This document shows, in pieces, positions 5,537 to 64,000 of a stretch of DNA of 64,000 nucleotides (position 1 is its first letter; each line of letters begins with the position of its first letter). The stretch is from Candidatus Uhrbacteria bacterium (GTDB taxonomy: Bacteria > Patescibacteriota > Patescibacteriia > UBA9934 > GWF2-40-263). The stretch is taken from assembly GCA_016188425.1 (NCBI GenBank), contig JACPHX010000020.1, positions 1,821-65,820 on the forward strand, read 5' to 3'. The notes beneath the pieces are model-generated. The model saw only the letters and a program-made list of their open reading frames with translations, was not told the origin of the DNA and did no database searches. Position numbers and translations under genes: made by a program.

Positions 5537-6396
5537 TTTCCATCCTGATCGTCCACTACAATACGCCTGGTCTCCTGCGGCAAACATTGCGCGGGTTTGA
5601 GCGCTGTCCTCCGACGGTCCCATTTGAGTTGGTGGTGGTGGATAACAATCCCACGCAGCGGGTCGCGAGTTGGGTTGCGGCCGAATTTCCGCAGGTAAAA
5701 CTGGTTGTGTCAGAATACAATCGCGGGTTTGGCGGAGCCATGAACGTGGCGGCCGCCGCGGCCGCGGGCGATTATCTGTTTGTATTCAATCCCGACATCG
5801 CGATTTTTCCAGGCGTATTGGAAGGGCTCACTTCGTTTCTGGACGAGAACCCCGATGTGGGAGTGGTAGGCCCGCAACTGCGCAACGCGGATGGCACGGT
5901 GCAATATAGTTGTTACCGTTTTATGACCCCCGCGATCGTCCTGTACCGGCGCCTGCCTGGGGCCGCGCTGTTTGCAAAGGCTCGCAGCGTTGTTTCCTCC
6001 TATCTCATGGAGGATGCCGACCATTCCAAGGTGCAAGATGTTGATTATCTCCTGGGGGCCTCGTTGTTTATGCGTCGGACGCTGTTTCAAAAATTAGGCG
6101 GGTTCGACCCCAAGTTGTTCATGTATTTTGAGGACCAGGATTTTTGTCGCCGAACCTGGATGTCGGGGTCGAGGGTTGTGTATTATCCCCTGGTCCACCT
6201 GGTTCACTACCATCGACGGGAAACCGCCCACGGAAACGTGCTGCGACAGCTTTTTCAGCGTCTGACGCGTATTCAAATGCGCAGCGCGTGGTATTATTTC
6301 CGTAAATATAAAGGACAGGAGAATCCAAGGAGGGGGGGAGGGTGGAGGGGGGAGGGGGGAGACAGGGAGCGGGGAGCGAATGGACCTGCAAGCTGA
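5533..6396 (+). CDS. family-2 glycosyltransferase; C-terminal tail encoded by a poly-G repeat
   Basis: MISILIVHYNTPGLLRQTL...LVVVDNNPT is a GT2 start. The ATG at 5533 overlaps the upstream stop as ATGA (alternative ATG at 5524). The tail RRGGGWRGEGGDRERGANGPAS is read from the G-rich arm of the repeat at 6338. Confidence 0.7.
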   Translation: MISILIVHYNTPGLLRQTLRGFERCPPTVPFELVVVDNNPTQRVASWVAAEFPQVKLVVSEYNRGFGGAMNVAAAAAAGDYLFVFNPDIAIFPGVLEGLTSFLDENPDVGVVGPQLRNADGTVQYSCYRFMTPAIVLYRRLPGAALFAKARSVVSSYLMEDADHSKVQDVDYLLGASLFMRRTLFQKLGGFDPKLFMYFEDQDFCRRTWMSGSRVVYYPLVHLVHYHRRETAHGNVLRQLFQRLTRIQMRSAWYYFRKYKGQENPRRGGGWRGEGGDRERGANGPAS

Positions 6397-6478
6397 TTTT
6401 GTACCCTTGGTTGTTTCCATTCCTTCCTACCCCTTTTCCCAATCCTCCTCCCTCCCCCCTCCACTCCTCCCACCTCTC
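6338..6478. repeat. poly-G arm (6338..6363) and poly-C arm (6421..6478) forming an inverted homopurine/homopyrimidine element
   Basis: ggagggggggagggtggaggggggaggggggag ... cctcctccctcccccctccactcctcccacctctc. The same architecture occurs in frame inside secA at 62559..62654. Confidence 0.5.
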
Positions 6479-6479
6479 T

Positions 6480-19600: not shown

Positions 19601-19726
19601 GGGCGCAAGGGGCGCAGGGGGTCCAAGGGGCGCAAGGGGGAAGGCAAGGAACACGGAGTCGGAAGCCCATGCGCGCTTGCGCGCCTATGTTTTTGCGCCT
19701 CTTGGACCCCCTGCGCCCCTTGCGCC
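19601..19726. repeat. CAAGGG-unit structured element, copy B1
   Basis: Left arm of four 9-bp units (CGCAAGGGG CGCAGGGGG TCCAAGGGG CGCAAGGGG), core ...GAACACGGAGTCGGAAGCCCATGCGCGCTTGCGCGCCTATGTT..., right arm the inverted complement (CCCCTTGCGCC). Near-identical to copies at 30671 and 52513. Confidence 0.7.
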
Positions 19727-25775: not shown

Positions 25776-25950
25776 GGGGAGGAGGGTAACCAGGGGTGAA
25801 CAGGGGAGAACAAGGGTGAACAAGTGGGGTGGAAGCTGGCATTCATACTGAAAAACAGGGACAATCTTTTGTTGTTAATTGATTAGGTCCCCTTCCATCC
25901 CCCTTGGTCCCTCCTGTTCACTCTTGTTGTCCCTTGGTTCCCGTCTGTTT
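25776..25950. repeat. CAAGGG-family variant (10-bp units TGAACAGGGG / AGAACAAGGG) with inverted right arm
   Basis: ...CCAGGGGTGAACAGGGGAGAACAAGGGTGAACAAGTGGGG... inverted later as ...CCCCTTGGTCCCTCCTGTTCACTCTTGTTGTCCCTTGGTTCCC. Confidence 0.6.
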
Positions 25951-30672: not shown

Positions 30673-30797
30673 AGGGCGCAAAGGGCGCAGGAGGTCCAAG
30701 GGGCGCAGGAACATAGGCGCGCAAGCGCGGATGTGCTTCTTCGTTCCGTGTTCCCGTCTCTCCCCTTGCGCCCCTTGGACCCCTTGCGCCCCTTGCG
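30671..30797. repeat. CAAGGG-unit structured element, copy B2 (inverted relative to B1)
   Basis: Its reverse complement reads GGCGCAAGGGGCGCAAGGGGTCCAAGGGGCGCAAGGGG...GAACACGGA...GCGCGCTTGCGCGCCTATGTTCCTGCGCCCCTTGGACC.... It begins at the methyltransferase stop codon. Confidence 0.7.
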
Positions 30798-30875
30798 CCT
30801 CTGTCCAAAATAAAACACCCCCCGACCAGTTTTCACTAGTCGGGAGGTACGCACCGTGTGTGTTGATTGACCTTG

Positions 30876-38596: not shown

Positions 38597-38624
38597 CCGG
38601 CGGAGCCGGGTCCGGCTCCGCCGG
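38597..38624. repeat. 28-bp palindrome family, intergenic copy (central GGG variant)
   Basis: CCGGCGGAGCCGGGTCCGGCTCCGCCGG. Confidence 0.8.
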
Positions 38625-38625
38625 A

Positions 38626-38649
38626 TAACCGTTAGACGATGGGGCCGTG
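38626..38649. repeat. 24-bp direct repeat, copy 2 (duplicate of the tRNA-Glu 5' end)
   Basis: TAACCGTTAGACGATGGGGCCGTG; flanks the GIY-YIG gene plus the 28-bp palindrome. Confidence 0.8.
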
Positions 38650-43287: not shown

Positions 43288-45207
43288 ATGGCAAAAATTC
43301 TTGGGATCGATTTGGGAACGACGAATTCTTGTGTCGCGATCATTGAAGGAGGGAAACCAAAAGTGCTTGATAACAGCGAAGGGTATCGCACCACACCTTC
43401 GATCATTGCGACGTCCAAGACAGGCGAGCGTTTGGTTGGGCTTCCTGCCAAACGCCAGTCGGTGACGAATCCGACGAACACCTTGTACTCTATCAAGCGC
43501 CTGATAGGCCGCCGCTTTACCGATGCCGAAGTGCAGCGTGATTTGGCGGTGTTCCCGTTTAAGATCCAGAAGCGCGGTGAAGGCGTCGAAGTACTCATGG
43601 GAGGAAAGGCATACACGCCGGAGGAAATTTCTGCGATGGTTTTGCAAAAGATCAAGAGTGATGCGGAAGCGCGTTTGGGCGAGTCGGTGACGGAAGCGGT
43701 CATCACCGTCCCTGCGTATTTCGACGACGCGCAGCGCCAGGCCACGAAGGTTGCAGGCGAGATCGCTGGCCTCACTGTGAAGCGCATCATCAACGAGCCG
43801 ACGGCGGCGGCGCTGGCGTATGGGTTTGACCAGAAGAAAGGCCAGCAAGTGCTCGTCTACGATTTGGGGGGCGGGACGTTCGACGTCTCTGTCCTCGATT
43901 TGTCCGCGGATACCGTTGAGGTGAAAGCCACCAACGGCGACACGCATTTGGGCGGCGACGATTTCGACCGCGTCGTCATCGACTGGATCGTCACCGAGTT
44001 CAAGAAAGCGGAAGGAATCGATCTTTCGAAAGATCCGCTCGCGATGCAGCGCATCAAAGACGCCGCCGAAAAGGCGAAGATCGAACTCTCCACCGCCGCC
44101 CAGACCGAAATCAACCAGCCCTTCATCACTTCCGATGCCAACGGCCCGAAGCACCTCGTCGTCCCTTTCACGCGTTCCCAGCTCGAATCATTGTGCCTTC
44201 CCCTCGCGGAGCGGACGATGGAGCCCGTGCGCCAAGCGCTCGCGGACGCGAAGATGGAGAAAAACGCCATCCACGAAATCATCATGGTCGGCGGCATGAC
44301 GCGCATGCCTCTCGTGCAGAAGAAGGTTGAGGAATTCTTCGGAAAGAAACCCAACCTATCGATCAATCCCGACGAAGTCGTTGCCCTGGGCGCCGCGGTA
44401 CAAGCCGGCGTCCTCCAAGGAGAGGTGAAAGACGTCCTCCTTTTGGATGTCACGCCTTTGTCGCTGGGCATCGAAACGTTGGGCGGAGTGATGACCGCGC
44501 TCATCGAACGCAACACGACGATTCCGACTTCCAAAGGCCAGACTTTCTCGACCGCCGCGGACAACCAGAATACGGTGGAGATCCACGTCCTCCAAGGCGA
44601 GCGGCCGATGGCCGCGGATAACAAGACTTTGGGACGCTTCGCGCTCTCGGGCATCCCCCCGGCTCCTCGCGGCGTTCCGCAAGTCGAGGTAAAATTCGAC
44701 ATCGACGCCAATGGGATCCTGAACGTCTCGGCCACCGACAAAGCATCGGGCCAGGCGCAGAGCATCCAGATCAAAGCGTCCACAGGTCTCTCCAAGGAAG
44801 ACATCGAGCGGATGAAAATGGAAGCGGAGCAACACGCGACGGAGGATACGAAGAAGCGTGAGCTTATCGAAGCACGCAACCTGGCGGAGCAGATGGTGTA
44901 CACCTCCGAGAAGATGCTCAAGGACAATGAGGCGAAGGTTTCGGCGGAAGATAAGAAGGCCGTGGAAGAGAAGATTGCCGCGATGCGCTCGGTCAAAGAT
45001 GCGGATGATCTGGACGCGATCAAGAAGGCGGGAGACGAGCTGACGGATATCGCGCAGAAGGTGGGGGGCAAGCTCTATCAATCGGGGCAGGCGCAAGGGG
45101 CGCAGGGGGCGTCCGGCGAAGCCGGATCCGGCTTCGCCGGACAAGGGGGAGGCGACGAACCGAAGACGGAGGGGGCACAGGATGCGAATTTTACGGAGAA
45201 GAAGTAA
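43288..45207 (+). CDS. dnaK: molecular chaperone DnaK (Hsp70); C-terminal tail contains a 28-bp palindrome copy
   Basis: [17 protein letters not shown]...[10 protein letters not shown]... full Hsp70. The tail ...[18 protein letters not shown] is read from the palindrome at 45113..45140. Confidence 0.95.
45113..45140. repeat. 28-bp palindrome family, copy in the dnaK tail (GAAGCC variant)
   Basis: CCGGCGAAGCCGGATCCGGCTTCGCCGG, in frame, encoding [10 protein letters not shown]. Confidence 0.7.
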
Positions 45208-45210
45208 GCA

Positions 45211-45306
45211 CGGGGCGGTTAAGAGGGGTTAAGGGTGATTAGGGGCGGTTTTCGGACCGTCCAGAATAGTCCTCTTAACCCCACCTAACCCCCCTTAACC
45301 GCCCCT
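45211..45306. repeat. structured inverted element, GTTAAGGG-unit variant
   Basis: GGGGCGGTTAAGAGGGGTTAAGGGTGATTAGGGGCGG ... CCTCTTAACCCCACCTAACCCCCCTTAACCGCCCC. Confidence 0.6.
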
Positions 45307-47235: not shown

Positions 47236-49604
<2,369 letters not shown>

Positions 49605-50218: not shown

Positions 50219-50259
50219 CACGTCCCCGGCGGGTGGTAGTGTGGATGTTGGAGGTGCGC

Positions 50260-51558: not shown

Positions 51559-52203
51559 TCACGCCGACCGGCGTCCTCGGAGCGCATCTCCAAGCGTCAC
51601 TTCATCCGCATACTCGATCGAGGCGCCAATCGGCAGGCCTCGCGCGAGGCGGGTGACGCGGCGGCCGAGGGGTTGTCCGGCGGAGCCGGATCCGGCTCCG
51701 CCGGACAGGCGGCGGGCGAGGTAGAGCATCGTTGTTTCGCCCGAGGCTGTGGGGGAGAGGGCGAGGATGACTTCCTCAATGGCCGGTTCGGCCTTGAGAC
51801 GGTCTTCCAGGTCGCGCACATGGAGGACGTCGGGGGTGATGCCTTCGATGGGATTCAGCGTCCCTCCCAGGACAAGATAGTAGCCCTTGAAGACGCCGGT
51901 ATCTTCAAACGTAGCGATGTCACGCGATTCTTCGACTACGCACAATAGTCCTGGAACACGGTTTGGATCGCGACAGATGTCGCAGGGGATAGATTGCGAA
52001 AAAGAAAAACAACGCGGACAAATTTTGATGAGTTCCGCGAGCGACAGGAGGTGGCGCGCGATGCGTTCCGTTTCTTGCCGGGGCTGTTTCAGCAAATGAT
52101 AGACGTACCGCAAGGCAGTCTTGGGGCCAACACCGGGAAGTTGGCCTAAAGCCGAAACCACGTTTTGGATTGGTTCAGGAAAACGTCGCACATCACATGC
52201 CAA
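51559..52203 (-). CDS. recR: recombination protein RecR with an in-frame palindrome insertion
   Basis: PEPIQNVVSALGQLPGVGPKTALRYVYHLL (HhH), C4 zinc finger CPRCFSFSQSIPCDIC, Toprim domain. Insertion SGGAGSGSAGQ near the C-terminus. Confidence 0.85.
   Translation of the reverse strand: MACDVRRFPEPIQNVVSALGQLPGVGPKTALRYVYHLLKQPRQETERIARHLLSLAELIKICPRCFSFSQSIPCDICRDPNRVPGLLCVVEESRDIATFEDTGVFKGYYLVLGGTLNPIEGITPDVLHVRDLEDRLKAEPAIEEVILALSPTASGETTMLYLARRLSGGAGSGSAGQPLGRRVTRLARGLPIGASIEYADEVTLGDALRGRRSA
51677..51704. repeat. 28-bp palindrome family, copy in recR
   Basis: CCGGCGGAGCCGGATCCGGCTCCGCCGG. Confidence 0.8.
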
Positions 52204-52512: not shown

Positions 52513-52628
52513 GGGGGCGCAAGGGGAGCAAGTGGTCCAAGGGGCGCAAGGGGAGGAGCAGGGAAAGTCGACGCGCTTACGTGTCTATGTTCTCTGCGCC
52601 CCTTGGACCACTTGCGCCCCTTGCGCCT
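52513..52628. repeat. CAAGGG-unit structured element, copy B3
   Basis: GGGGGCGCAAGGGGAGCAAGTGGTCCAAGGGGCGCAAGGGG...GTCGACGCGCTTACGTGTCTATGTTCTCTGCGCCCCTTGGACCACTTGCGCCCCTTGCGCC. Lies between the dnaB stop and the ybaB start. Confidence 0.7.
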
Positions 52629-52631
52629 GTT

Positions 52632-54116
52632 TTATACTCCGCCCATGAATCGCGTATCCACGGGCGGGGGTGCCATGTCTGCCGGGGCGCCGCCCATGAC
52701 GGGGGCCATTTCGTAGCCGCCGCCCTCCCCTCCATTGCCGTGCATGGCTTCGGGGGGTGGGGCGCCGGCGCGGCGGTCGAGGTTTCTAAAGGACGTGAGG
52801 CGGCTGTCGAAGAAGAGGCGCACCATGCCGGTGGGGCCGTTTCGGTGCTTGGCGATGTGGATTTCGGCCAGAGCCTTTTCTTCGGGGGCGAGGTCTTCGA
52901 GCTGGTAATTGCGGTCCGCGGCTTTGCGATAGATGAATAATACGACATCGGCGTCTTGTTCAATAGAGCCGGAGTCGCGCAAGTGGGACAAACGCGGAAT
53001 GGCGGGCTTGTTCAGTTCGACCGCGCGCGCGAGCTGGGCCAAGGCGAGGACGGGTACTTGGAGTTCGCGCGCGATCTGTTTGAGACCGCGGGAAATCTCG
53101 GATACCTCTTGCACGCGGTTCTCGCTGGACGCTTTCGAGCGGCCTTCCATGAGCTGCAAGTAGTCGACGACGACCAGGCCGAGCCCGTGCTCGGATTGGA
53201 GACGGCGGAGCTTCGTCCGCAACTCCATGACGCCCAAGCTCGCGGAGTCGTCTATGAATATCGGTGCCTCGGAGAGGACGCCCAATGCGTGGCCGATCCT
53301 GGGGAAATCGTCCTCGCGATCCGAGAGACGCCCTGTGCGCATCTTCCACAAGTCGACGCCTGCCTCCGCACAGATCATGCGGTCGACAAGCTGTTCTTTG
53401 GACATTTCCAAAGAAAAGACGGCGACCGGCGTCTTGCCCTTGATCGCGACATGCCGCGCAAGATCCATCGCGAGCGACGTCTTTCCGACGGAAGGACGCG
53501 CGGCGAGGATGAGGAGATCCGACTTTTGCATGCCTCCCAATAGGTTATCCAACTCGGTGTATCCCGTCGCGACTCCGCGCAACATCCCGCGGTTGCGATG
53601 CAGCTCGTCGATGCGCTCAAACGCGCCCGCAAGCACGTCGCGGATATTGATGAAGGTGTTTTTGAGGAAGTTCTGCGACACTTGGAAGAGCGTGCGCTCG
53701 GCATGGTCGAGCACGAGCTCCACGTCCTCTTCTTCCTTGAACCCCAGTTCGCTGATTTCCGCCGCGGCATTGAGCAAGCGCCGGAACGTTGCTTTTTTTT
53801 GGACGATGGCCGAGTAGTTGCCGATATGGGCCGCGGTCGCCACGCTGTTTGCGGTCTCGACGAGATACGCCCGCCCGCCGACGCGTTGCAGGAGGTTCTT
53901 CTCTTCGAGGCGGTTCCCCAGCGTCAGGATGTCCACCGGCTCATGTCGGTTGATGAGGTCCAGGATCGTCTCGTAGATGATGCGATGCGACTCCTTATAA
54001 AAATCTTCCGGGCGCAACGAATCGCCCACCCTGAGAAAGGCGTCCTTTTCCAGGAGCAAACAGCCCAGGATGGACTGCTCGGCCTCGATATTCTGCGGAG
54101 GAATTTTGTCGCGCAT
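52632..54116 (-). CDS. dnaB: replicative DNA helicase DnaB with a Gly/Pro/Ala/Met-rich C-terminal extension
   Basis: MRDKIPPQNIEAEQSILGCLLL..., Walker A GKTSLAMD, ...VVLFIYR.... Tail GAPPPEAMHGNGGEGGGYEMAPVMGGAPADMAPPPVDTRFMGGV. Confidence 0.9.
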   Translation of the reverse strand: MRDKIPPQNIEAEQSILGCLLLEKDAFLRVGDSLRPEDFYKESHRIIYETILDLINRHEPVDILTLGNRLEEKNLLQRVGGRAYLVETANSVATAAHIGNYSAIVQKKATFRRLLNAAAEISELGFKEEEDVELVLDHAERTLFQVSQNFLKNTFINIRDVLAGAFERIDELHRNRGMLRGVATGYTELDNLLGGMQKSDLLILAARPSVGKTSLAMDLARHVAIKGKTPVAVFSLEMSKEQLVDRMICAEAGVDLWKMRTGRLSDREDDFPRIGHALGVLSEAPIFIDDSASLGVMELRTKLRRLQSEHGLGLVVVDYLQLMEGRSKASSENRVQEVSEISRGLKQIARELQVPVLALAQLARAVELNKPAIPRLSHLRDSGSIEQDADVVLFIYRKAADRNYQLEDLAPEEKALAEIHIAKHRNGPTGMVRLFFDSRLTSFRNLDRRAGAPPPEAMHGNGGEGGGYEMAPVMGGAPADMAPPPVDTRFMGGV

Positions 54117-54187
54117 AGCTCCGCCATCTTAGCATCATCCCCCAACCGCGCCAGTGGAAAAGCTGTGTGCTATAATTTACATAATCT

Positions 54188-55351
54188 ATGCAAAGAAAAA
54201 TAGGAGGAGGGACGTTTTGGCGCGCGGTGGCGGCCATGATGGGCGGGGTGGTGGGCGTGGGGGTTTTCGGGCTCCCGTATGCGTTTCTGCAAAGCGGCTG
54301 GGTGGTCGGCACCATCTTATTGGTCGCGATCGGCTTTGCGATGTATCTCATGCAACTGATGGTCGCGGAATTGTGCGAGCACACGCCTGGCGAACATCGC
54401 ATCGTCGGGTTCATCCAACGGTACCTGGGGCCGTGGGCCGGGTATGCGGCGGTCGTGTTGTTTGCCTTGTCCGCGTGGGGAGCGATGAGCGCGTACATAC
54501 AGGTCGGGGGCGTGTTCTGGCAGACGCTGTTCTCGCCGTTTGTGGGCGGATCGGCCGTGGCGTACCAGCTCCTGGTGTGGGGCGCTGCCGCCGCGCTCAT
54601 CTTTCAAGGCCTGCGGTTTGCGACGCGATTCGAACCTGCCGTGGTGGGAGCATTCATTTTGCTTTTCGTTCTTTTCATCATCCGCGCGGCCGCCTCATTT
54701 TCCGCTGGCCGCCTTCCTGTTACCGATTGGACGGCCTGGCAAGTTCCCTATGGCGTAGTGCTGTTTGCGGTTTCCGGGTTGGCCGTCGTGCCAGAGATGT
54801 ACGCCATCCTTGGGGCGCAAAAACGCAAACGGCTTCCCGTCGCCCTGGCCGTCGGTGCCGCGCTGATCCTTTTTCTGTACTTCGCGTTCGCGGTTTCGGT
54901 TCTTGGCGCGACCGGATCGCACACCACTCCTATCGCCTTCGCTGGGCTTTCGACGCTCTTCAGCCCATGGTTCATTTTCGTTGGCTCCGCGATCGGCGGG
55001 CTTGCGACGTTTTCGATTTTTTGGATGGTCGGGTTGGAGCTGCAGAACACGCTGCGCATCGATTATAAAATATCCCGGCGCGTGGCCTGGATATATACCG
55101 TCGTCCCGCCGCTCCTCTTTGTTTTCCGATCCTCCTCGGGTTTCATCCAGACCCTCACCTTCGTCGGGGGCATCCTCATTGCCCTCTTCTCCGTTCTGCT
55201 CATCTGGGCGCACCTGCGGATGCGTGATACGGGCACCTGCCGTGTTTATGGCTGCTCGCGCATCCCCGCTTGGGTTTCCTATCTCTTGATGGCTGTTCTG
55301 CTCGTGGGAGCGGTGATCGAGCTACGTCCGTATCTCGCGGGACTTCTGTAA
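54188..55351 (+). CDS. amino-acid permease-like membrane transporter (APC/AAAP-type)
   Basis: Eleven to twelve predicted TM helices; N-terminal VGVFGLPYAFLQSGWVVGT is typical of amino-acid/auxin permease-family transporters. Confidence 0.6.
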   Translation: MQRKIGGGTFWRAVAAMMGGVVGVGVFGLPYAFLQSGWVVGTILLVAIGFAMYLMQLMVAELCEHTPGEHRIVGFIQRYLGPWAGYAAVVLFALSAWGAMSAYIQVGGVFWQTLFSPFVGGSAVAYQLLVWGAAAALIFQGLRFATRFEPAVVGAFILLFVLFIIRAAASFSAGRLPVTDWTAWQVPYGVVLFAVSGLAVVPEMYAILGAQKRKRLPVALAVGAALILFLYFAFAVSVLGATGSHTTPIAFAGLSTLFSPWFIFVGSAIGGLATFSIFWMVGLELQNTLRIDYKISRRVAWIYTVVPPLLFVFRSSSGFIQTLTFVGGILIALFSVLLIWAHLRMRDTGTCRVYGCSRIPAWVSYLLMAVLLVGAVIELRPYLAGLL

Positions 55352-56164
55352 TTGGTGCGCCCTCAGGATATTCATGAGGAGGCAAGCGACCGTCATGGGG
55401 CCGACGCCACCGGGGACAGGGGTGATGGCGCCCGCGAGGGGGGAGACGGTCTGAAAATCTACGTCACCGACGATCTTCCCATCCACCTTTGTCGTGCCCA
55501 CGTCGATGACGATGGCGCCGGGTTTGACCATGGAAGAAGAGATCAGATTCGGCTGTCCCACCGCGACGATGAGCACATCGGCCGTTTTTGTTTTCTCCGC
55601 GAGAGACGGGTCGGTCGGAGAGAGGACGGCGGGGACGATCGACCGCTCGCGCAAGAGGGGAGTCAGAGAACGCGCGAAAAGTCTGGAACCTATAATCACG
55701 GTTTTCCCAGCATTCTGCGCGCCAGATTCAACGAATAGTTTCATGATTCCGAGTCCCAATGCAGAGGCAATCCCCGGCCTCCCTTCTTCTAGCGCCGCGA
55801 GGTTCTCGGGATGGAATCCATCGACATCTTTCCATGGGTCGATCGCGCCAATGATCGCGTCCGTGTCTTGGGAAGGAAGGGGGAGCTGTACCAAGATGCC
55901 AGTAATCTCCCCCCTCCCATTCCACTCGTTTATCTTTTCAATGATGTCCCCATCCGACGCATCTCCAAGAAAAACCTTCTTCTCAAACCGAATCCCCGCC
56001 TCTTCACACGCTTTTTGTTTCAAAGAGACGTATAGATGCGACGCCGGATCGTCACCGACTAAAATGACGCCAAGGCCAACATTCAGTTGCTGGTCGGCGA
56101 TGCGCTGTTTGATTTTTTCACGGATGCGCTGCGCCATCGCGCGGCCGTCCAGGAGGTGGGGCAT
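55322..56164 (-). CDS. folD: bifunctional methylenetetrahydrofolate dehydrogenase/cyclohydrolase FolD
   Basis: AQRIREKIKQRIADQ...VILVGDDPASHLYV...GIMKLF...GAGKTVIIGSRLF...PVPGGVGPMTVACLL; start at internal M16 (MPHLLDG). Confidence 0.85.
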   Translation of the reverse strand: MPHLLDGRAMAQRIREKIKQRIADQQLNVGLGVILVGDDPASHLYVSLKQKACEEAGIRFEKKVFLGDASDGDIIEKINEWNGRGEITGILVQLPLPSQDTDAIIGAIDPWKDVDGFHPENLAALEEGRPGIASALGLGIMKLFVESGAQNAGKTVIIGSRLFARSLTPLLRERSIVPAVLSPTDPSLAEKTKTADVLIVAVGQPNLISSSMVKPGAIVIDVGTTKVDGKIVGDVDFQTVSPLAGAITPVPGGVGPMTVACLLMNILRAHQLQKSREIRT

Positions 56165-56217
56165 AGATGGTGGAAGGATAACAGGACATTCAGCCGACTG
56201 TCGATGCAAGCTGCGGG

Positions 56218-57462
56218 TTAGTACATCAGGTTCGGATACAAGGGAAATCTTCCCGTCATCCCTTTTACCTCTTCCCGTATTTGTCTCAGTTTCGTCGCAT
56301 CCGACGCGTTCATAATTGCCTCATCAATCCATCCCGCAATCTTCTTCATCTCCTCCTCTTCCATCCCCCGCGTCGTGATTGCCGGCGTCCCCAACCGAAT
56401 CCCCGACGGATCCATCGGCGAGCGCGGGTCGTCTGGGATCATGTTCTTGTTGACGGTGATGCCTGCGAGATCGAGCGCCTTCTCGGCCTGTGCTCCTGTG
56501 ACTCCCTTGGGCGTCACGTCGATCAAAAGGAGGTGGTTGTCGGTTCCACCGAACATCAAACGATAGCCACGAGAGGCCAATTCTTTTTCCAAGATCTTCG
56601 CATTGGCTTTGATTTGTTTTGCATACTCCTTGAACGACGGCTCGAGTGCTTCTTTGAAGGCGACGGCTTTGGCGGCAATGACGTTTTCGTGCGGCCCTCC
56701 TTGGAGTCCAGGAAAGACGGCCTTGTCGATGGCTTTTTTGTGGATCTCTTTGCATATGATCATTCCCCCTCGTGGACCGCGCAGCGTTTTGTGCGTCGTG
56801 GTCGTGACGACATCGAAGAGCGGGACAGGATTATGCATCTCCCCGGCGGCGATGAGGCCGGCGATGTGGGCGATGTCGGCCATGGTGATCGCCCCGACTT
56901 CGTCGGCGATCGCTTTGACCTTCTCGTACTCGATTTCGCGCGAGTACGCGCTGTAGCCCGCGAGGATCATCTTGGGTTTGTGCTCGATTGCCATCGCGTG
57001 CAGATTGTCGTAATCGATGCGGCCGTCGGTGGTTGTTTTGTATCGGATGAAGTCGTAGATCTTCGCCATGTACGTCACGGGATGGCCATGCGTCAGATGC
57101 CCGCCGTGGGAGAGATCCATTCCGAGGATCTTGTCTCCAGGAGAGAGAAGCGCCGAGTAGACGGCGACGTTGGCGGGGGCGCCAGAGAGTGGTTGGACAT
57201 TGATGTGTTCTGCTCCAAAAAGTTGCTTCGCGCGCGCGATCGCCAATGATTCGATCTCGTCGATGAACTCACAGCCACCATAATACCTTTTTCCAGGATA
57301 CCCTTCTGAATATTTGTTCGTCGCGATCGAGCCAAGGGCTTCCAGGACGGCCTCGGAGACGAAGTTTTCCGAGGGGATCATCTCCAGCCCTTCGCGTTGG
57401 CGGGTAAGCTCGCGGGCGAGTGAAGCGGCGGTGGCTGGGTCGAACGCGGAGAGGTTTGTCAT
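56218..57462 (-). CDS. glyA: serine hydroxymethyltransferase
   Basis: ...TTTTHKTLRGPRGGMI... PLP-lysine region; full-length SHMT; start at internal M15 (MTNLSAFDP). Confidence 0.9.
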   Translation of the reverse strand: MTNLSAFDPATAASLARELTRQREGLEMIPSENFVSEAVLEALGSIATNKYSEGYPGKRYYGGCEFIDEIESLAIARAKQLFGAEHINVQPLSGAPANVAVYSALLSPGDKILGMDLSHGGHLTHGHPVTYMAKIYDFIRYKTTTDGRIDYDNLHAMAIEHKPKMILAGYSAYSREIEYEKVKAIADEVGAITMADIAHIAGLIAAGEMHNPVPLFDVVTTTTHKTLRGPRGGMIICKEIHKKAIDKAVFPGLQGGPHENVIAAKAVAFKEALEPSFKEYAKQIKANAKILEKELASRGYRLMFGGTDNHLLLIDVTPKGVTGAQAEKALDLAGITVNKNMIPDDPRSPMDPSGIRLGTPAITTRGMEEEEMKKIAGWIDEAIMNASDATKLRQIREEVKGMTGRFPLYPNLMY

Positions 57463-57559
57463 AGTGACGCCAGTGTACGCCAAGCTTGACAATAGGAAAA
57501 ACAATGAATAGAGTGTACACTCTTCGTGGTTGCACGAACGAGAAAGGAAGGAGGTTCAG

Positions 57560-58819
57560 ATGAGCACCTTGCAAACCTCTTCATCGGCGCCGTCCTCCCG
57601 GCGCGGGTGGACGATGCATAAGGATATGATGGAGCGCCTTCCTTCCGGAGGCGCGATCGTCACGGCAAAAGAATGGAGACAAAAATGGGATGACCAGCAG
57701 CTGTTCTCGCCGCCCGGCGGGTCGATCGTCGTTGAGGCGATTCCGTCCTGGAACAGCCGCGGCCTCCTGCGCCATTCGCGCGTGGGGAACACGGAGCTTC
57801 CGGCTGGGGGGATCAAGATCGTCTACGCCGATGAGGAACACTCCGTCGTGTGGATGGGGTCGTTTGGCGGCAAGCCAGCGGGTCTGTATCGGGTCGAACG
57901 AGGGTCGGTCTATTTCTTGGTGGCGATGCCGACGCTGCAACGTTCGATCGCGCTGTCTTCAGAGGCGGGCGGATGGGCGGCGGCCGGGTCGGTTCCAAAA
58001 GAGCCGCACCTGATCCAATTCGTTTCCGCCTACCACGCCCTCCTTTTTCCTCGCCGTCCGTTGCAGCAGACTCCCGTCTTTCGTGATGGCCGCCTGCTTC
58101 ATTTTCAGAAGGAAGCGGACGGGAACACGTACCTGCGGACGGTATTGCTTGGGAATGCAAAACGGTGGGAAGGACGGACGGGGGAAGCGAAGGTGGCGAA
58201 AGAGATAGCGGACAGCCCCCTTTTTCCGCTGGCGTTTTACGATGATACGTACGTCGCGGTGGCGGACCTGGGAGTGGAGGCCCGCTATTTCAAAGAGGCG
58301 GCTGCGGCGCGGATCCCCGGGAAACTGCAGGTGATCCGACGTTCCCCTATGGGAGTGTCCCATGCCCTGGTCACCTGCATGGAGGACGACATGCACGGAA
58401 CACGGACGTGCGTGCGCTTGAATGTGGAGAAGGATCCCATTCTTTCCGGACGCATTTTCCAGAAGACGGTTCTCGTCGCGTGGAGCCCCAACGAGCAGCA
58501 GGCCGCCATCGCGTACGAAGCGCGGACGGCCAAAGGCGTCCGGCAGTTCTTCAAGACCCCGCATGACGGCGTGGAGGAGATTCCAGAGGGCGTGAAGCTC
58601 ATCTCGTTCTTGCTGGGGGATAACGGCCAGGCGCACTCGCGGGTGTTCATTGATGCAGGCCATTTCTACGTGGAATTGCTTGGACACATTGTCGGCCCCT
58701 TCGATGACGCGCGGGATTTGCGCCATGAGCCCTTGGGTTCCAGCGTAAGAGTCTACGAGGAAGGAGCCCAGCGCGCCTATCGGATCCGCGCCGCAAAAGA
58801 CGATTCGCCTCCTAACTGA
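57560..58819 (+). CDS. hypothetical protein
   Basis: ORF 57530..58819 with protein-like composition; start at M11 (MSTLQTSSS...). No recognisable motif. Confidence 0.45.
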   Translation: MSTLQTSSSAPSSRRGWTMHKDMMERLPSGGAIVTAKEWRQKWDDQQLFSPPGGSIVVEAIPSWNSRGLLRHSRVGNTELPAGGIKIVYADEEHSVVWMGSFGGKPAGLYRVERGSVYFLVAMPTLQRSIALSSEAGGWAAAGSVPKEPHLIQFVSAYHALLFPRRPLQQTPVFRDGRLLHFQKEADGNTYLRTVLLGNAKRWEGRTGEAKVAKEIADSPLFPLAFYDDTYVAVADLGVEARYFKEAAAARIPGKLQVIRRSPMGVSHALVTCMEDDMHGTRTCVRLNVEKDPILSGRIFQKTVLVAWSPNEQQAAIAYEARTAKGVRQFFKTPHDGVEEIPEGVKLISFLLGDNGQAHSRVFIDAGHFYVELLGHIVGPFDDARDLRHEPLGSSVRVYEEGAQRAYRIRAAKDDSPPN

Positions 58820-58879
58820 TTGATCGGTTGGGGGGTATTTTTATGGCAATCGGTACGGATTACCCGCCGTCGCCCGGGC

Positions 58880-58990
58880 GGCTAAGGCGGGCAGGCGGAA
58901 GCATACGGAATTACGGAAGTACGGAAGGACGAATTCGGTTCCGAACGTACTACCCCCTTTTGAAGGGGGAAAGGGGGTTACCGTTCGTTT
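58880..58990. repeat. structured repeat with TACGGAA tandem units and a CCCCTT-TTG-AAGGGG hairpin
   Basis: GTACGGAATTACGGAAGTACGGAAGGACGAATTCGGTTCCGAACGTAC...CCCCTTTTGAAGGGGG. The hairpin motif recurs at 60450..60466 and 60510..60526, flanking murC. Confidence 0.4.
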
Positions 58991-59053
58991 TGTGATTAGC
59001 GGGTGTTCCATGGTCTTTGACCTTAGCGTTTTTCCCTTCTACCATATTCCTAT

Positions 59054-60463
59054 ATGTTTACCTCGGTAAAACACGTCCATCTGATCGGCGCGGGAGGAAT
59101 TGGCGTCTCGGCGCTTGGGAAGTGGTTTTTGCGCCGCGGGGTGCTTGTCAGCGGGCAGGACCGCGTGGCGTCGGCCGTGCTTGATGATTTGGTAAAACTA
59201 GGAGGGGTCATGGCGGTCGCCGACGACTCGGGTCTGGAGAAGGATGTCGACTTGGTCATTTATTCCCCCGCCGTCACCCCGGAGCATCCGACACGTAAGG
59301 AAGCGGACGCGCGTGGCGTCCGATCGCTTTCTTATCCAGAGGCGCTCGGGGAATTAACGCGCGGCCATAAGACGATTGCGGTTACAGGGACCAACGGCAA
59401 GAGTACGACGACGTCGATGATCGGATTGATGCTCGAGGCGGCCGGGTTGGATCCGACTGTCGTCGTCGGCTCGCTCGTCCCCGGGTTTGTCGATGGGAAT
59501 TTGCGGAGCGGAAATGGCTCATGGTTTGTTGTCGAGGCCTGCGAGTACCGCGAGCACATGCTCCTCCAACACCCAACGATCGGGGTTATCACTAACATTG
59601 AGGAAGATCATTTGGATTATTACCGTGACATCAACCACATCCACGAAGCGATGCAAAAATTCGCAAACCAGTCGGAGGTACTCGTGTGGAATGCGGATGA
59701 TGAGATGTCGGGGAGGTTGGAGGGAGGAGGTTGGAGGGAGGAGGTTGGAGGGAGGAGGTTGGAGGGAGGAGGGGGGAGGATTTCATGCGGAATAGAGACG
59801 GGTGAGATACGGGCGGTTGACCGTCGCGTTGGCGCTGGTGAACAATCATTCGTCTGTCTGGACGGCACGGATCGTCTTGGTGAGATCCATCTGCAGATCC
59901 CCGGAGTCTACAATGTTCAAAACGCGCTCGCGGCCATTGCGGCGGCGAGCAAGGCAGGAGTGCCGTTTGAGGTGTGCCAGAAGGTGCTGGCGGACTATCG
60001 CGGCATCTGGCGCCGGTTCGAACGGGTCGGGACCTTTAAAGGAGCGCCGATCATCTCAGACTACGGTCATCATCCGACGGCCGTGAAAGGGGTCGTCGAT
60101 GCAGCGCGCGAGTTTTTTCCAGGACGGCGGATCGTGTTGTGCTTCCAGCCCCATCAGCATTCGCGGACGAAGGAGTTGCGTCCGCAATTCGCGGAAGCGC
60201 TGCGCGCCGCGGATATTGTCATCGTGCCAGAGATTTACAAGGTGGCAGGGCGTACCGAGAAGGAAGAACGTGAGATATCGAGCGTGGATCTGGTCGACGA
60301 CGTGCGTGCACTCGATGAGAACAAGAACATCCGCGTCGCCTCCGACCTCGCGCGCGCCGAGCGCATGCTCCGCGACCTCGTCACGGAGGGGGACGTCGTG
60401 ATTGCGCAAGGCGCGGGGGATATCGATACAGTCGCAAGGAATTTAGTAACTTCCTCCTTTTGA
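59054..60463 (+). CDS. murC: UDP-N-acetylmuramate--L-alanine ligase with an in-frame tandem-repeat insertion
   Basis: MFTSVKHVHLIGAGGIGVSALGKWF...VTGTNGKSTTTSMIG...; insertion MSGRLEGGGWREEVGGRRLEGGGGR. Confidence 0.9.
   Translation: MFTSVKHVHLIGAGGIGVSALGKWFLRRGVLVSGQDRVASAVLDDLVKLGGVMAVADDSGLEKDVDLVIYSPAVTPEHPTRKEADARGVRSLSYPEALGELTRGHKTIAVTGTNGKSTTTSMIGLMLEAAGLDPTVVVGSLVPGFVDGNLRSGNGSWFVVEACEYREHMLLQHPTIGVITNIEEDHLDYYRDINHIHEAMQKFANQSEVLVWNADDEMSGRLEGGGWREEVGGRRLEGGGGRISCGIETGEIRAVDRRVGAGEQSFVCLDGTDRLGEIHLQIPGVYNVQNALAAIAAASKAGVPFEVCQKVLADYRGIWRRFERVGTFKGAPIISDYGHHPTAVKGVVDAAREFFPGRRIVLCFQPHQHSRTKELRPQFAEALRAADIVIVPEIYKVAGRTEKEEREISSVDLVDDVRALDENKNIRVASDLARAERMLRDLVTEGDVVIAQGAGDIDTVARNLVTSSF
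59712..59785. repeat. 15-bp tandem repeat GGAGGTTGGAGGGAG x4 plus a partial unit, in frame in murC
   Basis: ggaggttggagggag repeated 4 times (59712..59771), followed by gaggggggagga. Confidence 0.75.
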
Positions 60464-60526
60464 AGGATGGATGGGGAGGTTGCCGTTCTGTTTGAGTCTT
60501 AACGCATCCCCCTTTTGAAGGGGATT
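60448..60526. repeat. two CC(T/C)CCTTTTGAAGG(A/G) hairpin motifs downstream of murC
   Basis: tcctccttttgaaggatgg and atcccccttttgaaggggattg. Confidence 0.4.
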
Positions 60527-60555
60527 GCGTCGGAAAATGTGGATAGTTTGAAACT

Positions 60556-61539
60556 ATGAATGACATTACATCCTCGCTTCTTTCTAGGTTCGGGACGCGA
60601 TTGAAACAAAACGAGCTTCTCTCCAAACACACCAACTTTCGCATCGGCGGTCCTGCTCGTTGGTACCTTGAAGCCAAGACGGAGGCGGATGTGATGGATG
60701 CTTGGAAGATCGCGCACGAGAATAGTGTGCCTGTATTTGTGTTGGGTGGAGGATCGAATACGCTCGCCCCCGACGAAGGATATCCTGGTCTCGTGATCCA
60801 GATCGCGATGCGTGATATCTCGATCGACGGCCAAGACGTCGTCGCGGACGCTGGCGCCTTGTCTGTTGCGGTCGCTCGGCAAACTGGGAAGGCGGGGCTT
60901 TCTGGGATGGAGTGGGCGATTTCGCTTCCGGGGACGATCGGGGGAGCGGTGCGCGGGAATGCGGGATGCTTTGGAGGGGAGACGAAGGATCGTCTCGTGT
61001 CCGCACGGGTGCTTCGTGAGGGCAAGGTGGTTGAGATGAGCAAGAAGGATCTCGATTTCCACTACCGCCACAGTTCCATCAAAGGAACGAACGACATAGT
61101 ATTGTCAGCGAAGTTTCATTTGGAAAAAGGGGATGCGGATGAGCTGCAAAAAAAGATGGAGGAGATTTTGGGGAAGAGGAAGGCTTCGCAGCCGATGTCG
61201 GCTGGGTCGGCGGGGTGTATGTTTAAGAATTGTGAGCTGGCAGCTGGCAGCTCGAAGCTGGCAGCGATGATCGAAAAAAAAATACCGTTACCAAACAACT
61301 GCCCGCTGCCCGCTGCCCGCTGCCAGCTTCCCGCCGGCTGGCTCATCGACCAAGCAGGCCTCAAGGGCCTCCGCATCGGCGATGCCCAGATAAGCGACGT
61401 GCATGGGAATTTCGTCGTAAACCTCGGAAAAGCCACGGCAGAAGATGTGATGGCCGTCGTCCACAAGGCCAAGGAGACCGTGAAGGAGAAGTTTGGTATA
61501 GAATTGGAGGAGGAAGTGCAGTTAATTGCCCAAGGGTGA
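60556..61539 (+). CDS. murB: UDP-N-acetylenolpyruvoylglucosamine reductase with an in-frame ~30-codon palindromic insertion
   Basis: FRIGGPARWYLEAKTEADVMDAWKIAHENSVPVFVLGGGSNTL... (FAD-binding) ...SAGWLIDQAGLKGLRIGDAQISDVH. Insertion CELAAGSSKLAAMIEKKIPLPNNCPLPAARCQLP. Confidence 0.9.
   Translation: MNDITSSLLSRFGTRLKQNELLSKHTNFRIGGPARWYLEAKTEADVMDAWKIAHENSVPVFVLGGGSNTLAPDEGYPGLVIQIAMRDISIDGQDVVADAGALSVAVARQTGKAGLSGMEWAISLPGTIGGAVRGNAGCFGGETKDRLVSARVLREGKVVEMSKKDLDFHYRHSSIKGTNDIVLSAKFHLEKGDADELQKKMEEILGKRKASQPMSAGSAGCMFKNCELAAGSSKLAAMIEKKIPLPNNCPLPAARCQLPAGWLIDQAGLKGLRIGDAQISDVHGNFVVNLGKATAEDVMAVVHKAKETVKEKFGIELEEEVQLIAQG
61233..61322. repeat. GCTGGCAGC-armed palindromic element inside murB
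   Basis: GAGCTGGCAGCTGGCAGCTCGAAGCTGGCAGC ... GCTGCCCGCTGCCCGCTGCCAGCTTC; 90 bp, in frame. Confidence 0.7.
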
Positions 61540-61620
61540 CAAGGGTCGCAAGTGTTTCAAGGGCACACGGAAACGATTACCCTTGAAACCCTTGCGACCC
61601 TTGCCGCTCTTGAAACCCTT
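61529..61620. repeat. CAAGGG-unit structured element, variant; the murB stop codon lies in the first unit
   Basis: CCAAGGGTGACAAGGGTCGCAAGTGTTTCAAGGGC ... CCCTTGAAACCCTTGCGACCCTTGCCGCTCTTGAAACCC. Confidence 0.6.
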
Positions 61621-61632
61621 AACCCCCTCCCT

Positions 61633-61977
61633 ATGACTATCGCCTCGATCAAGAGTACGAACATGGACATGACGGATGCTATCCGTGGCTACGTAGAGAA
61701 ACGTCTGGCGTCGCTCGACAAAATCGCCGCTTCCTATGGGCCGGCGGTGGAGGTGCGGGTAGAAGTTGGGAAGACCACCCGGCATCATGCCAAAGGGCCG
61801 TACATGAAAGCTGAATTCACCATGGATATTCCTGGAGCTGTCTTGCGCGTGGAGCGGGAACATGAAGATTTGTACGCCGCCATCGACGAGGCGGCAGAGG
61901 AACTGAAACGCCAGCTCGTGGACCAAAAAGAAAAACGGGACGATCGCCATATGGGGGCCAGGCCGGACAAGGAATAG
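61633..61977 (+). CDS. hpf: ribosome hibernation-promoting factor / RaiA family
   Basis: MTIASIKSTNMDMTDAIRGYVEKRLASLDKI...AEFTMDIPGAVLRVEREHEDLYAAIDEAAEELKRQL. Confidence 0.8.
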   Translation: MTIASIKSTNMDMTDAIRGYVEKRLASLDKIAASYGPAVEVRVEVGKTTRHHAKGPYMKAEFTMDIPGAVLRVEREHEDLYAAIDEAAEELKRQLVDQKEKRDDRHMGARPDKE

Positions 61978-62049
61978 GATATACAGGGAGGCCAGTTGCC
62001 TCCCTTTTTTCTTTCCGTTCTTCGTGTACAATCTTCCCACAAACCACCT

Positions 62050-64000
62050 ATGTCGATTTTGAATGCCATTTTTGGCGATCCCAACAAGAAAGTTCTCAAA
62101 AAGATGGAGAAAGATGTCGCGCAGATCAATGCGTTGGAAGCGTCGGTCCAGGGGCTTTCGGATGAACAATTGAAGGGGAAGACGGTGGAATTCCGGGAGC
62201 GTCTCGCCAAAGGGGAGGCGTTGGATTCGTTGTTGCCCGAGGCATTCGCCACGGTCCGCGAGGCGGCGAAACGAACGCTCTCGCAACGGCATTTCGACGT
62301 GCAGCTCATGGGCGGGCTCGCGCTTTATCATGGCAGTATCGCCGAGATGCGCACGGGGGAAGGAAAGACATTGACCGCGACCACTGCTTTGTACGCGCGG
62401 GCGCTTGAAGGGAAAGGAGCACACCTCGTGACTGTCAACGATTACCTCGCGCGCCGCGATGCGGTGTGGATGGGACAGATCTTCCATGCGCTGGGGATGA
62501 CCATTGGGTGTATCCAGCATGCGGGCGGGTTTAGGTATGATCCGGAGTTTGTGTCGAAAGAGGAGGGGGGAGGGGGAAGGGGGGAGGGTGGAGAACAGGG
62601 GGGGCAAAACGCAGATGGCAGAACGGTCTCCGCCACCTCCCACCTCCCACCTCCTATCGCTTCCTTCAAGGTGGATCAGGAATATTTGCGGCCGGTGGCG
62701 CGGGTGGAGGCGTATAGCGCGGATATCACCTATGGCACGAACAATGAGTTCGGGTTCGACTACTTGCGTGACAACATGGCCGGCCGTCTCAAAGACCAAG
62801 TCATGCGCGGGTTGCATTACGCGATCGTCGACGAGGTCGACTCCATTTTGATCGACGAAGCGCGCACGCCGCTCATCATCTCGGCCCCATCGGCCGCGGT
62901 GAACGAGATGTATGTCCGTATCTCCCCGATCATCCGCGGCCTCATTGAAAAGGAGGACTTCCATGTCGATGAGAAACTGCATGCAGCGACGTTCACCGAG
63001 CAGGGCATCACGAAAGTGGAGCAAGCGCTTGGCCTTGCGAACCTTTATGACGCCGGGCACAACGTCCACTACTACGCGGATGTAACGTTGCGTGCGTACG
63101 CGTTGTATCGACGCGACGTGCAATACGTCGTTCGCGAAGGCGAGGTCGTTATTGTCGACGAGTTCACGGGACGCCTTATGCCAGGACGTCGGTTCTCGGA
63201 AGGCATTCATCAGGCCATCGAAGCCAAGGAAGGAGTGCCGATCCAGAAGGAAAGTCTCACCCTGGCGACGATTACGTTCCAGAATTATTTCCGTATCTAC
63301 AGACATCTTGGGGGGATGACGGGAACCGCCGCGACCGAAGCGGAGGAGTTTTCCAAGATTTATAATCTCGAGGTCACGCAGATCCCGACGCATCGAGCGA
63401 ATGCGCGCAAGGATCAGACGGATCGCGTCTACAAAAATGCAAAGGGAAAATTCGATGCGGTCGTCGCGGAAGTGAAACGCCTCCATGAGGCGGGCGAGCC
63501 GGTGCTGGTCGGTACCGTCTCCATCGAGAAGAACGAATTGCTCGGCGCGCTTCTCGCGCAGGCGGGGGTGCCGCATGAGATTTTGAATGCGAAGAATCAT
63601 GAACGCGAGGCAGAGATCATCGCGCAAGCAGGACGCCCAGGCGCGGTTACGATTGCGACGAACATGGCGGGGCGAGGTGTGGACATCATGCTTGGTGGCA
63701 ACCCACCTGATCCGACGAATTTTGAGAAGGTCAAAGAGCTGGGCGGGCTGTGCGTCATCGGCACGGAGCGCCACGAAAGCCGTCGCATCGACAACCAGTT
63801 GCGTGGACGCTCTGGTCGCCAAGGAGACCCAGGCGTCACCCAGTTTTATCTTTCCCTGGAAGACGACCTGATGCGCATCTTCGGCTCCGACCGCACGAAG
63901 TCCATGATGGACCGACTTGGGGTTCCGGATGACGTGCCGATCGAGAACCGCATGGTCACAGGCGCCATCGAGCGCGCGCAGAAGCGTGTGGAGGCACATC
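62050..64000 (+). CDS. secA: preprotein translocase ATPase SecA, 5' partial (runs off the window end) with an in-frame poly-G/poly-C insertion
   Basis: [19 protein letters not shown]...[20 protein letters not shown]...[20 protein letters not shown]...[11 protein letters not shown].... No stop before 64000; the long minus ORF 61522..63999 is its antisense shadow. Confidence 0.9.
62559..62654. repeat. poly-G / poly-C inverted element in frame in secA
   Basis: gaggaggggggagggggaaggggggagggtggag...ccgccacctcccacctcccacctcc, encoding [35 protein letters not shown]. Confidence 0.55.

Follow-up and report, generated by a model that had tools for sequence, protein, structure and literature searches.

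How can a tandem repeat with a unit that is not a multiple of three nucleotides lie within an essential cell-wall gene and still leave that gene readable? The question is raised by murC, the gene for UDP-N-acetylmuramate--L-alanine ligase, on a contig (JACPHX010000020.1, positions 1,821 to 65,820 of the forward strand) of GCA_016188425.1, the metagenome-assembled genome of an uncultured Candidatus Uhrbacteria bacterium; the whole 64,000-nt stretch analysed is called the window below, and all positions refer to it. Inside murC, 4.36 copies of the 14-nt unit GGAGGTTGGAGGGA form a perfect run of 61 bp (59712-59772), and one degenerate unit comes after it (Table 1). We consider it reasonably probable that this array arose recently, when native G-rich murC codons were expanded locally by strand slippage, and that it stands at a frame-preserving copy number and is tolerated as a disordered surface loop.

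For the perfect run, Tandem Repeats Finder (TRF) reported a period of 14, 4.4 copies, 100% matches and a score of 122, and autocorrelation of the array gave 87% identity at lag 14 compared to 41% at lag 15, with an exact period-14 run of 61 bp. The original prediction had described four copies of a 15-bp, five-codon unit at this site. A strong tandem repeat was indeed found where it had been placed, while the identities at the two lags ruled out the proposed unit length: the 15-mer GGAGGTTGGAGGGAG that had been taken as the unit does occur four times, but at a spacing of 14 bp (59712, 59726, 59740 and 59754), each occurrence overlapping the next by one base, and the period of the amino-acid sequence is 14 residues, equal to three DNA units, and not five codons. 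The peptide MSGRLEGGGWREEVGGRRLEGGGGR assigned to the array was the correct in-frame translation. Each unit is composed of two GGAGGNN heptamers. The array is the single perfect tandem run of such size in the window, and in 50 shuffles preserving local composition the longest perfect run was 17 bp, compared to 61 bp in murC. Because the 61-bp run is perfect and its four units are identical, the array appears to be young. The TRF rows with periods of 28 and 7 reach 59779 and thus extend into the degenerate fifth unit GGAGGGGGGAGGAT, which is probably part of an older native G-rich tract.

The naming of the host gene as murC was supported in agreement by its Pfam domains, its matches in the PDB and a fold comparison. 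The three Mur-ligase domains (N-terminal, middle ATP-binding and C-terminal) are present in the expected order in the repeat-bearing protein, all above cut-offs, with PF01225 (Mur_ligase) at residues 7-105, PF08245 (Mur_ligase_M) at 110-298 and PF02875 (Mur_ligase_C) at 320-455. In the PDB, the same protein matched MurC chains with expect (E) values of 1e-47 to 3e-75 (best 9ir5, 3e-75), compared to 1e-19 for MurD. Its AlphaFold2 (AF2) model had a predicted local distance difference test (pLDDT) value of 90.8 and a predicted template modelling (pTM) score of 0.90, and superposed on the substrate-bound H. influenzae MurC 1p3d with a template modelling (TM) score of 0.90 and a root-mean-square deviation of 2.4 Å. 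All 43 alignment columns that were invariant across 120 sequences are kept, including residues G112, T113, G115, K116 and S117 of the P-loop GTNGKS. The host gene is therefore identified as murC, and ligase activity is predicted from these sequence features. Its open reading frame (ORF) of 469 codons for amino acids is intact, and the product aligns end to end with homologues; it is identical to NCBI entry MBI2551573.1 from a Candidatus Uhrbacteria metagenome-assembled genome (a member of the candidate phyla radiation, CPR), and the next-best MurC homologue in a search of 5.8 billion proteins shared 57% identity.

Within the protein, the array lies in the central ATP-binding domain, directly after the NADD strand, and hence inside Mur_ligase_M and not between the nucleotide-binding and central domains, where the insert had been located by the original prediction. 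When the 120 best MurC sequences were aligned, the equivalents of D216 and G246 were separated by exactly 14 residues in 119 of 119 homologues and by 29 residues here, and about 14-15 residues of the segment G220-R242 were surplus relative to all homologues. This confirmed the expectation that the array adds residues to MurC that orthologues lack; presence of the same segment in orthologues had been named among the observations that would speak against the claim, and it was seen in none of the 119 homologues. The insert also proved as rare as had been supposed, a two-unit pattern having no match in 185,579 representative genomes (GTDB) or in JGI metagenome contigs. Similarly, the flank joined to 1.36 units, which would represent an alternative allele, gave 0 matches in JGI metagenome contigs, and a proto-repeat was not found in the DNA of relatives at the murC site. 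Among the top matches of the protein search, no other MurC exceeded 57% identity, and truncated MurC fragments from this organism were absent; the exact MurC protein was likewise missing from an index of gene positions. In a self-BLAST of the window, the array matched only itself, and no inverted partner was found in the window. A copy of a dispersed element was rejected as the source of the array on the basis of the self-BLAST and the two-unit pattern search, as was a hairpin or inverted-repeat element of the kind seen in murB, tgt and secA (see below), given the missing inverted arm and a folding z-score of +0.3.

The AF2 model assigned pLDDT values of 66 and 50 to residues 221-240, with residues 234-239 below 50. 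The insert was the sole low-confidence stretch of the central domain and looped out between strands 209-213 and 242-246, and the model thus suggests that, within a MurC fold predicted with confidence elsewhere, it is probably a disordered Gly/Arg/Glu-rich loop.

Since 14 is not divisible by three, the reading frame shifts from each unit to the next through all three frames, and the encoded peptide has a period of 42 nt; the unit is free of stop codons in all six frames. In an in-silico copy-number series, the ORF stayed open at 1, 4 or 7 full units only, one in three copy numbers being readable, while a change by one or two units introduced a stop 6-10 codons after the array and truncated MurC. 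The consequence of slippage by one or two units would therefore be a frameshift and a truncated enzyme, and not merely a longer or shorter loop. Deletion of any three units left the segment DEMSGRLEGGGGRISCG, which is one residue (an extra Gly) longer than in orthologues and aligns with their consensus D-P-x-S-x-x-L...V-x-Y-G. The position of Leu222 is conserved in at least 90% of the 120 MurC sequences, and its codon lies within the first unit, which shows that the repeat originated in native murC sequence rather than foreign DNA. AGG encodes each of the five Arg residues of the insert segment but accounts for only 6% of Arg codons in 17 genes of the window; this usage points to a young product of a process acting at the DNA level and not shaped by translation.

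The presence of the array in sequencing reads was assessed with Logan contigs, which are built from a k=31 graph in which each 31-mer occurs once (PMC12424806), for two SRA runs (SRR12113421 and SRR12113422). The three relevant contigs, L008, L006 and L007, were identical to the window (0 mismatches over 6,353, 4,146 and 3,012 nt, respectively). In simulations, a repeated 30-mer, and hence a forced break at the observed points, required at least 3 full units (a run of at least 47 nt); with one or two units, the k=31 contig read straight through. As the breaks of the Logan contigs lie on each side exactly 30 nt inside the run, at least three units must be present in the reads, this being a lower bound in that 3, 4 or 5 units look alike in k=31 graphs and alleles of 2-5 units are invisible in them. 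A branch expected approximately 11 nt earlier for a one-unit allele of appreciable frequency was absent from L008, where a minor allele could be hidden by graph cleaning.

Watson-Crick folding of the array yielded a minimum free energy (MFE) of -3.2 kcal/mol (z +0.3), i.e., no structure. Each unit is a GG-N-GG-NN-GG-N-GG motif, and with the G-quadruplex model of ViennaRNA the energy of the 91-nt region changed from -3.2 to -55.4 kcal/mol, with tandem quadruplexes in register with the units. The array region carries 14 GGAGG words in 74 nt, and the RNAs r(GGAGGAGGAGGA) and r(GGAGGUUUUGGAGG) have been shown to form tetrad/hexad quadruplexes in vitro (PMC2764455). Quadruplexes of this type, which include the R12 aptamer and r(GGAGGUUUUGGAGG), follow the same grammar of GG runs split by A or short loops, and one of the solved RNAs is also 14 nt long; those molecules are in-vitro oligonucleotides, whereas the likeness of the murC array is one of sequence and folding model. 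G-quadruplexes in the array might make a polymerase more prone to stall and to slip in the 14-nt register. No known RNA family was found at the array, Rfam matches over the window being two tRNAs only. Internal Shine-Dalgarno (SD) pausing or re-initiation was set aside as a weak candidate, most of 25 genes, murC included, having no upstream SD motif; the ATG that follows the array lies out of frame and would start an ORF of just 6 codons. Although most of these 25 sampled gene starts lack the motif, GGAGG is frequent on the coding strand (3.0 per kb); the opposite strand has 1.6 per kb, and relatives have 1.3-2.2 per kb.

Under the favoured reading of a local expansion, the ancestral segment would have resembled ...TCG GGG AGG TTG GAG GGA GGA GGG GGG AGG ATT..., with GGAGG words 7 and 14 nt apart, and misalignment in a 14-nt register would have added units. 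MurC would remain readable only after a net increase by three units (42 nt, 14 residues), which would produce the allele seen, whose product would be a Gly/Arg/Glu-rich loop bulging from the central domain between two beta-strands and tolerated by the enzyme. Low-complexity expansions with a 7-nt period elsewhere in the genome, which are not found in the syntenic loci of relatives, suggest that the tendency is lineage-wide. Several observations weigh against this reading. Its main weakness is that a stepwise path from one to four units crosses two frameshifted, truncated murC alleles, intermediates that fit poorly with the essential role of the gene unless a single event added several units or truncation was tolerated for a short time. 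That the site has the same length in all 119 homologues suggests constraint, so that neutrality is not assured. Moreover, the total surplus is 15 residues and not 14, which requires at least one further 3-nt change, and the nearest MurC is just 57% identical and thus affords no strain-level comparison.

An alternative explanation is that the array is a contingency (phase-variation) locus, in which gain or loss of a single unit toggles murC between ON and OFF (truncated after about residue 230-260) and generates a subpopulation with arrested peptidoglycan synthesis. An intra-ORF repeat with a non-triplet unit is the defining architecture of frame-switching simple sequence repeats (SSRs), the units are identical as in active SSRs, and the stop that follows any one- or two-unit change would provide the OFF state. 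Non-triplet SSRs, including heptanucleotide ones within ORFs, are recognised candidate mediators in H. influenzae (PMC2651432), and reversible frameshifts in a core metabolic gene, glpK of M. tuberculosis, have been reported. Nevertheless, we regard such a switch as unlikely, because known switches usually contain many copies of 1-8-nt units and not about four copies of a long one, and because MurC is a single-copy core cytoplasmic enzyme of peptidoglycan synthesis and not the product of a dispensable, environment-facing gene, so that its loss should be lethal and not adaptive. In addition, a truncated MurC fragment of this organism was not among the top matches in the 5.8-billion-protein search, and the left Logan contig has no branch for a one-unit allele. 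That the array has instead been selected for a function, either as a new flexible, charged MurC loop or through two-tier GGAGG-type quadruplexes in the mRNA or the non-template DNA that modulate murC expression, appears distinctly unlikely. The modelled quadruplex energy, the register of the quadruplexes with the units, the density of GGAGG words and the in-vitro behaviour of r(GGAGGAGGAGGA) and r(GGAGGUUUUGGAGG) (PMC2764455) are in its favour, but two-tier quadruplexes are marginal in vivo, an array unique to one genome allows no conservation to be demonstrated, and the rare codons and identical units are signs of a young, unselected sequence; an effect through internal SD motifs is improbable given that most genes here, including murC, lack an upstream one.

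We also considered whether the insert began as a copy of a dispersed G-rich or palindromic element and was expanded by slippage only later. Such elements are at hand, since a 30-nt palindrome lies cleanly in-frame in recR and is also found in the dnaK tail and in a gene of glycosyltransferase family 4 (GT4), and the murC core GGAGGTTGGAGG (12 nt, at most 1 mismatch) occurs at 5 other sites in the window compared to 0.41 expected, four of the five (6337, 49365, 62636 and 62643) being in or beside other repeat or palindrome segments and the fifth at 50243. However, the first unit holds native, aligned murC codons including that of Leu222, no copy of the array at BLAST level exists elsewhere in the window and there is no inverted arm, which makes an element-derived seed very unlikely. 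Finally, the true genome could have fewer units if the assembler had looped through the repeat; the sequence comes from one metagenome-assembled contig, and assemblies are known to go wrong at tandem repeats (PMC9879509). Against this, the contigs of the independent Logan assemblies of both runs break at the points that a k=31 graph dictates for three or more units, no mismatch to the window was seen at either junction, the copy number in the assembly belongs to the one third of values at which the ORF stays open, and an array of 61 bp is shorter than typical reads. On the k=31 breakpoints in the two runs, an assembly artefact was ruled out, and any such error is extremely improbable.

The expansion of native codons that we favour can be compared with several known systems. 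Rickettsia palindromic elements (RPEs) are selfish repeats inserted in-frame in housekeeping genes. The murC array resembles them as an in-frame peptide insertion into a conserved enzyme that leaves the fold intact, but it is a direct tandem repeat of native-codon origin, neither palindromic nor dispersed. Measured against RPE-like elements and transposable elements of the miniature inverted-repeat type (MITEs), the array shares the in-frame position with an intact host protein, while dispersed copies in the 64-kb window and a palindrome or terminal inverted repeat are missing. In-frame palindromes that are RPE-like do occur in this genome, in recR, dnaK, the GT4-family gene, tgt and murB. The most far-reaching reading would combine these elements, making the array an active frame-toggling switch in an essential gene that continually yields murC-OFF cells through single-unit slippage, one product of a lineage-specific process writing short periodic repeats and palindromes in-frame into murC, murB, secA, tgt, recR and dnaK, and a CPR counterpart of RPEs; we accord it little probability.

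Like the amino acid tandem repeats (aaTRs) of Borgs (PMC9879509) and bacterial coding variable number tandem repeats (VNTRs), the array consists of perfect head-to-tail nucleotide copies that are lineage-specific and recent, and it lies inside an intact ORF, to which it adds a segment of low complexity that is probably disordered; the mechanism usually proposed for coding tandem repeats is replication slippage. Two of the features that define such repeats, namely two or more head-to-tail copies beyond chance (here 4.36 copies with 100% identity) and a position in an undisrupted ORF, are present, and a unit divisible by three is not. Intra-ORF tandem repeats of Borgs always have unit lengths divisible by three (PMC9879509), whereas the 14-nt unit of murC keeps the frame at every third copy number and gives a peptide period of 14 residues, and the host is a core cytoplasmic enzyme with a site that is length-invariant in 119 homologues. 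Contingency loci are defined by an intragenic or promoter SSR with a unit that is not a multiple of three, and this the murC array has; as in the contingency SSRs of Haemophilus, Neisseria and Mycoplasma, slippage by a single unit shifts the frame (PMC2651432). It differs from them in its long unit (14 nt), its few copies (about 4) and its host, an essential cell-wall ligase, the hosts of contingency SSRs being surface, lipopolysaccharide (LPS) or restriction-modification genes. We class the array as a coding tandem-repeat expansion.

Taken alone, the array would be a tolerated simple-sequence expansion, but an unusually clean one, combining a non-triplet unit, an essential enzyme, a length-invariant site and a three-unit rescue of the frame. 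The insert offers a natural test of the tolerance of a core enzyme for loop insertions, and the array poses the question of how a non-triplet repeat can expand without lethal intermediates. Should reads reveal a variable copy number, the array would represent a rare instance of a core cell-wall gene subject to frame-switching. The in-frame palindromes and periodic repeats across several housekeeping genes may be a more interesting lead than the murC array itself.

Table 1 Coordinates of the murC array, the Logan contigs that reach it and other features of the window.
Feature	Position	Strand	Basis or remark
murC ORF, 469 aa, UDP-N-acetylmuramate--L-alanine ligase, repeat host	59054..60463	+	Pfam, PDB, AF2
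Perfect tandem run, unit GGAGGTTGGAGGGA	59712..59772	+	Full units at 59712, 59726, 59740, 59754 and a 5-nt partial unit; TRF, exact run, shuffles
Degenerate fifth unit GGAGGGGGGAGGAT	59768..59781	+	10/14 positions as in the unit; direct sequence reading
Repeat-encoded loop, residues G220-R242 (GRLEGGGWREEVGGRRLEGGGGR)	59711..59779	+	Alignments and pLDDT
TTG codon of Leu222, inside first unit	59717..59719	+	Alignments, codon layout
Putative 42-nt (three-unit) gain, one possible placement	59726..59767	+	Copy-number series; homologue segment length of 14 in 119/119
Logan contig L008 (SRR12113421)	53389-59741		Stops 30 nt inside the run
Logan contig L006 (SRR12113421)	59743-63888		Begins 30 nt ahead of the run's end
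Logan contig L007 (SRR12113422)	59743-62754		Begins 30 nt ahead of the run's end
30-nt palindrome, recR	51676-51705	-	
30-nt palindrome, dnaK C-terminal tail	45111-45140		
30-nt palindrome, GT4-family gene (48399-49604)	49328-49357		
30-nt palindrome, intergenic	38597-38626		
murB hairpin	61235-61334		In-frame
tgt hairpin	47892-47963		In-frame
secA hairpin	62555-62660		
Hairpin at GT2 / DUF4012 gene junction	6329-6480		
Dispersed palindromic element of ~125 nt	19602-19726; 30675-30799; 52516-52627		
Intergenic hairpins with CAAGGGNNN-type arms	47236-47331; 61531-61620; 45212-45305; 25783-25934		
AT-rich inverted repeat	12909-13009		
Gene upstream of murC	57530-58819	+	
ORF antisense to hpf and secA, 825 aa	61522-63999	-	

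The window as a whole is unusually rich in short periodic repeats (periods of 7 and 9, which are not multiples of three) and in long hairpins, and the syntenic loci of relatives are not. The low-complexity expansions with a 7-nt period were found in murB, secA, tgt and dnaJ, and it appears that the lineage accumulates such insertions. For DnaJ, the G-rich array at 45883 was dismissed as an insertion, as it corresponds to the normal Gly-rich linker region. Compared to the other insertions in the window, the murC array is direct and perfect, lacks both a partner arm and dispersed copies, and occupies a site that is otherwise length-invariant.

The 30-nt perfect palindrome (TCCGGCGGAGCCGGATCCGGCTCCGCCGGA and close variants) has four dispersed copies, three of them in-frame in genes, where it encodes SG(G/E)AGSG(S/F)AG. 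In recR, it forms a clean 10-residue insertion that is absent from two relatives. It resembles RPEs but is much shorter. The ends of a further Logan contig, L005, fall on two copies of this palindrome. The murB and tgt hairpins have arms composed of AGCTGGC / CTGCCCG heptamers, with RNA MFE values of -53 and -58 kcal/mol (z -5.3 and -8.6), respectively, and both were confirmed by Logan contigs; their right arms are 90% identical over 31 nt. At the hairpin, MurB exceeds its relatives by 7 residues, and Tgt exceeds solved TGT structures by 13 residues; the Tgt loop concerned is hypervariable, with 30-69 residues in orthologues. The secA hairpin and that at the junction of the glycosyltransferase family 2 (GT2) and DUF4012 genes each combine an array of G-rich, GGAGGGG-like heptamers with an inverted arm rich in C that pairs with it. 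The former adds approximately 20 residues relative to relatives, in a variable loop, and the latter, at 6330, folds with -100 kcal/mol and overlaps the ends of two ORFs.

The dispersed palindromic element of about 125 nt has arms of 33 nt with 9-nt periods (GGGGCGCAA) that are 91-97% complementary and fold with approximately -100 kcal/mol. Its copies at 19602 and 30675 are 87% identical over 127 nt including the loop, and the copy at 52516 has a different loop; the element belongs to no Rfam family and had 0 matches in the 185,579 representative genomes. Further intergenic hairpins with 9-10-nt periodic arms (CAAGGGNNN) stand directly after gene ends (between the murB stop and the hpf start, upstream of tgt, and between dnaK and dnaJ) and may be lineage-specific terminators or repetitive extragenic palindromic (REP)-like elements. 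An AT-rich 47-nt inverted repeat, 77% complementary and located between two plus-strand genes, is unlike the G-rich families of the window. The gene upstream of murC encodes a protein of 419-429 aa with no Pfam match, and the protein encoded at the same position in two relatives has 232-234 aa. The 825-aa ORF antisense to hpf and secA is almost certainly spurious, because SecA, supported by strong Pfam matches, is encoded on the plus strand.

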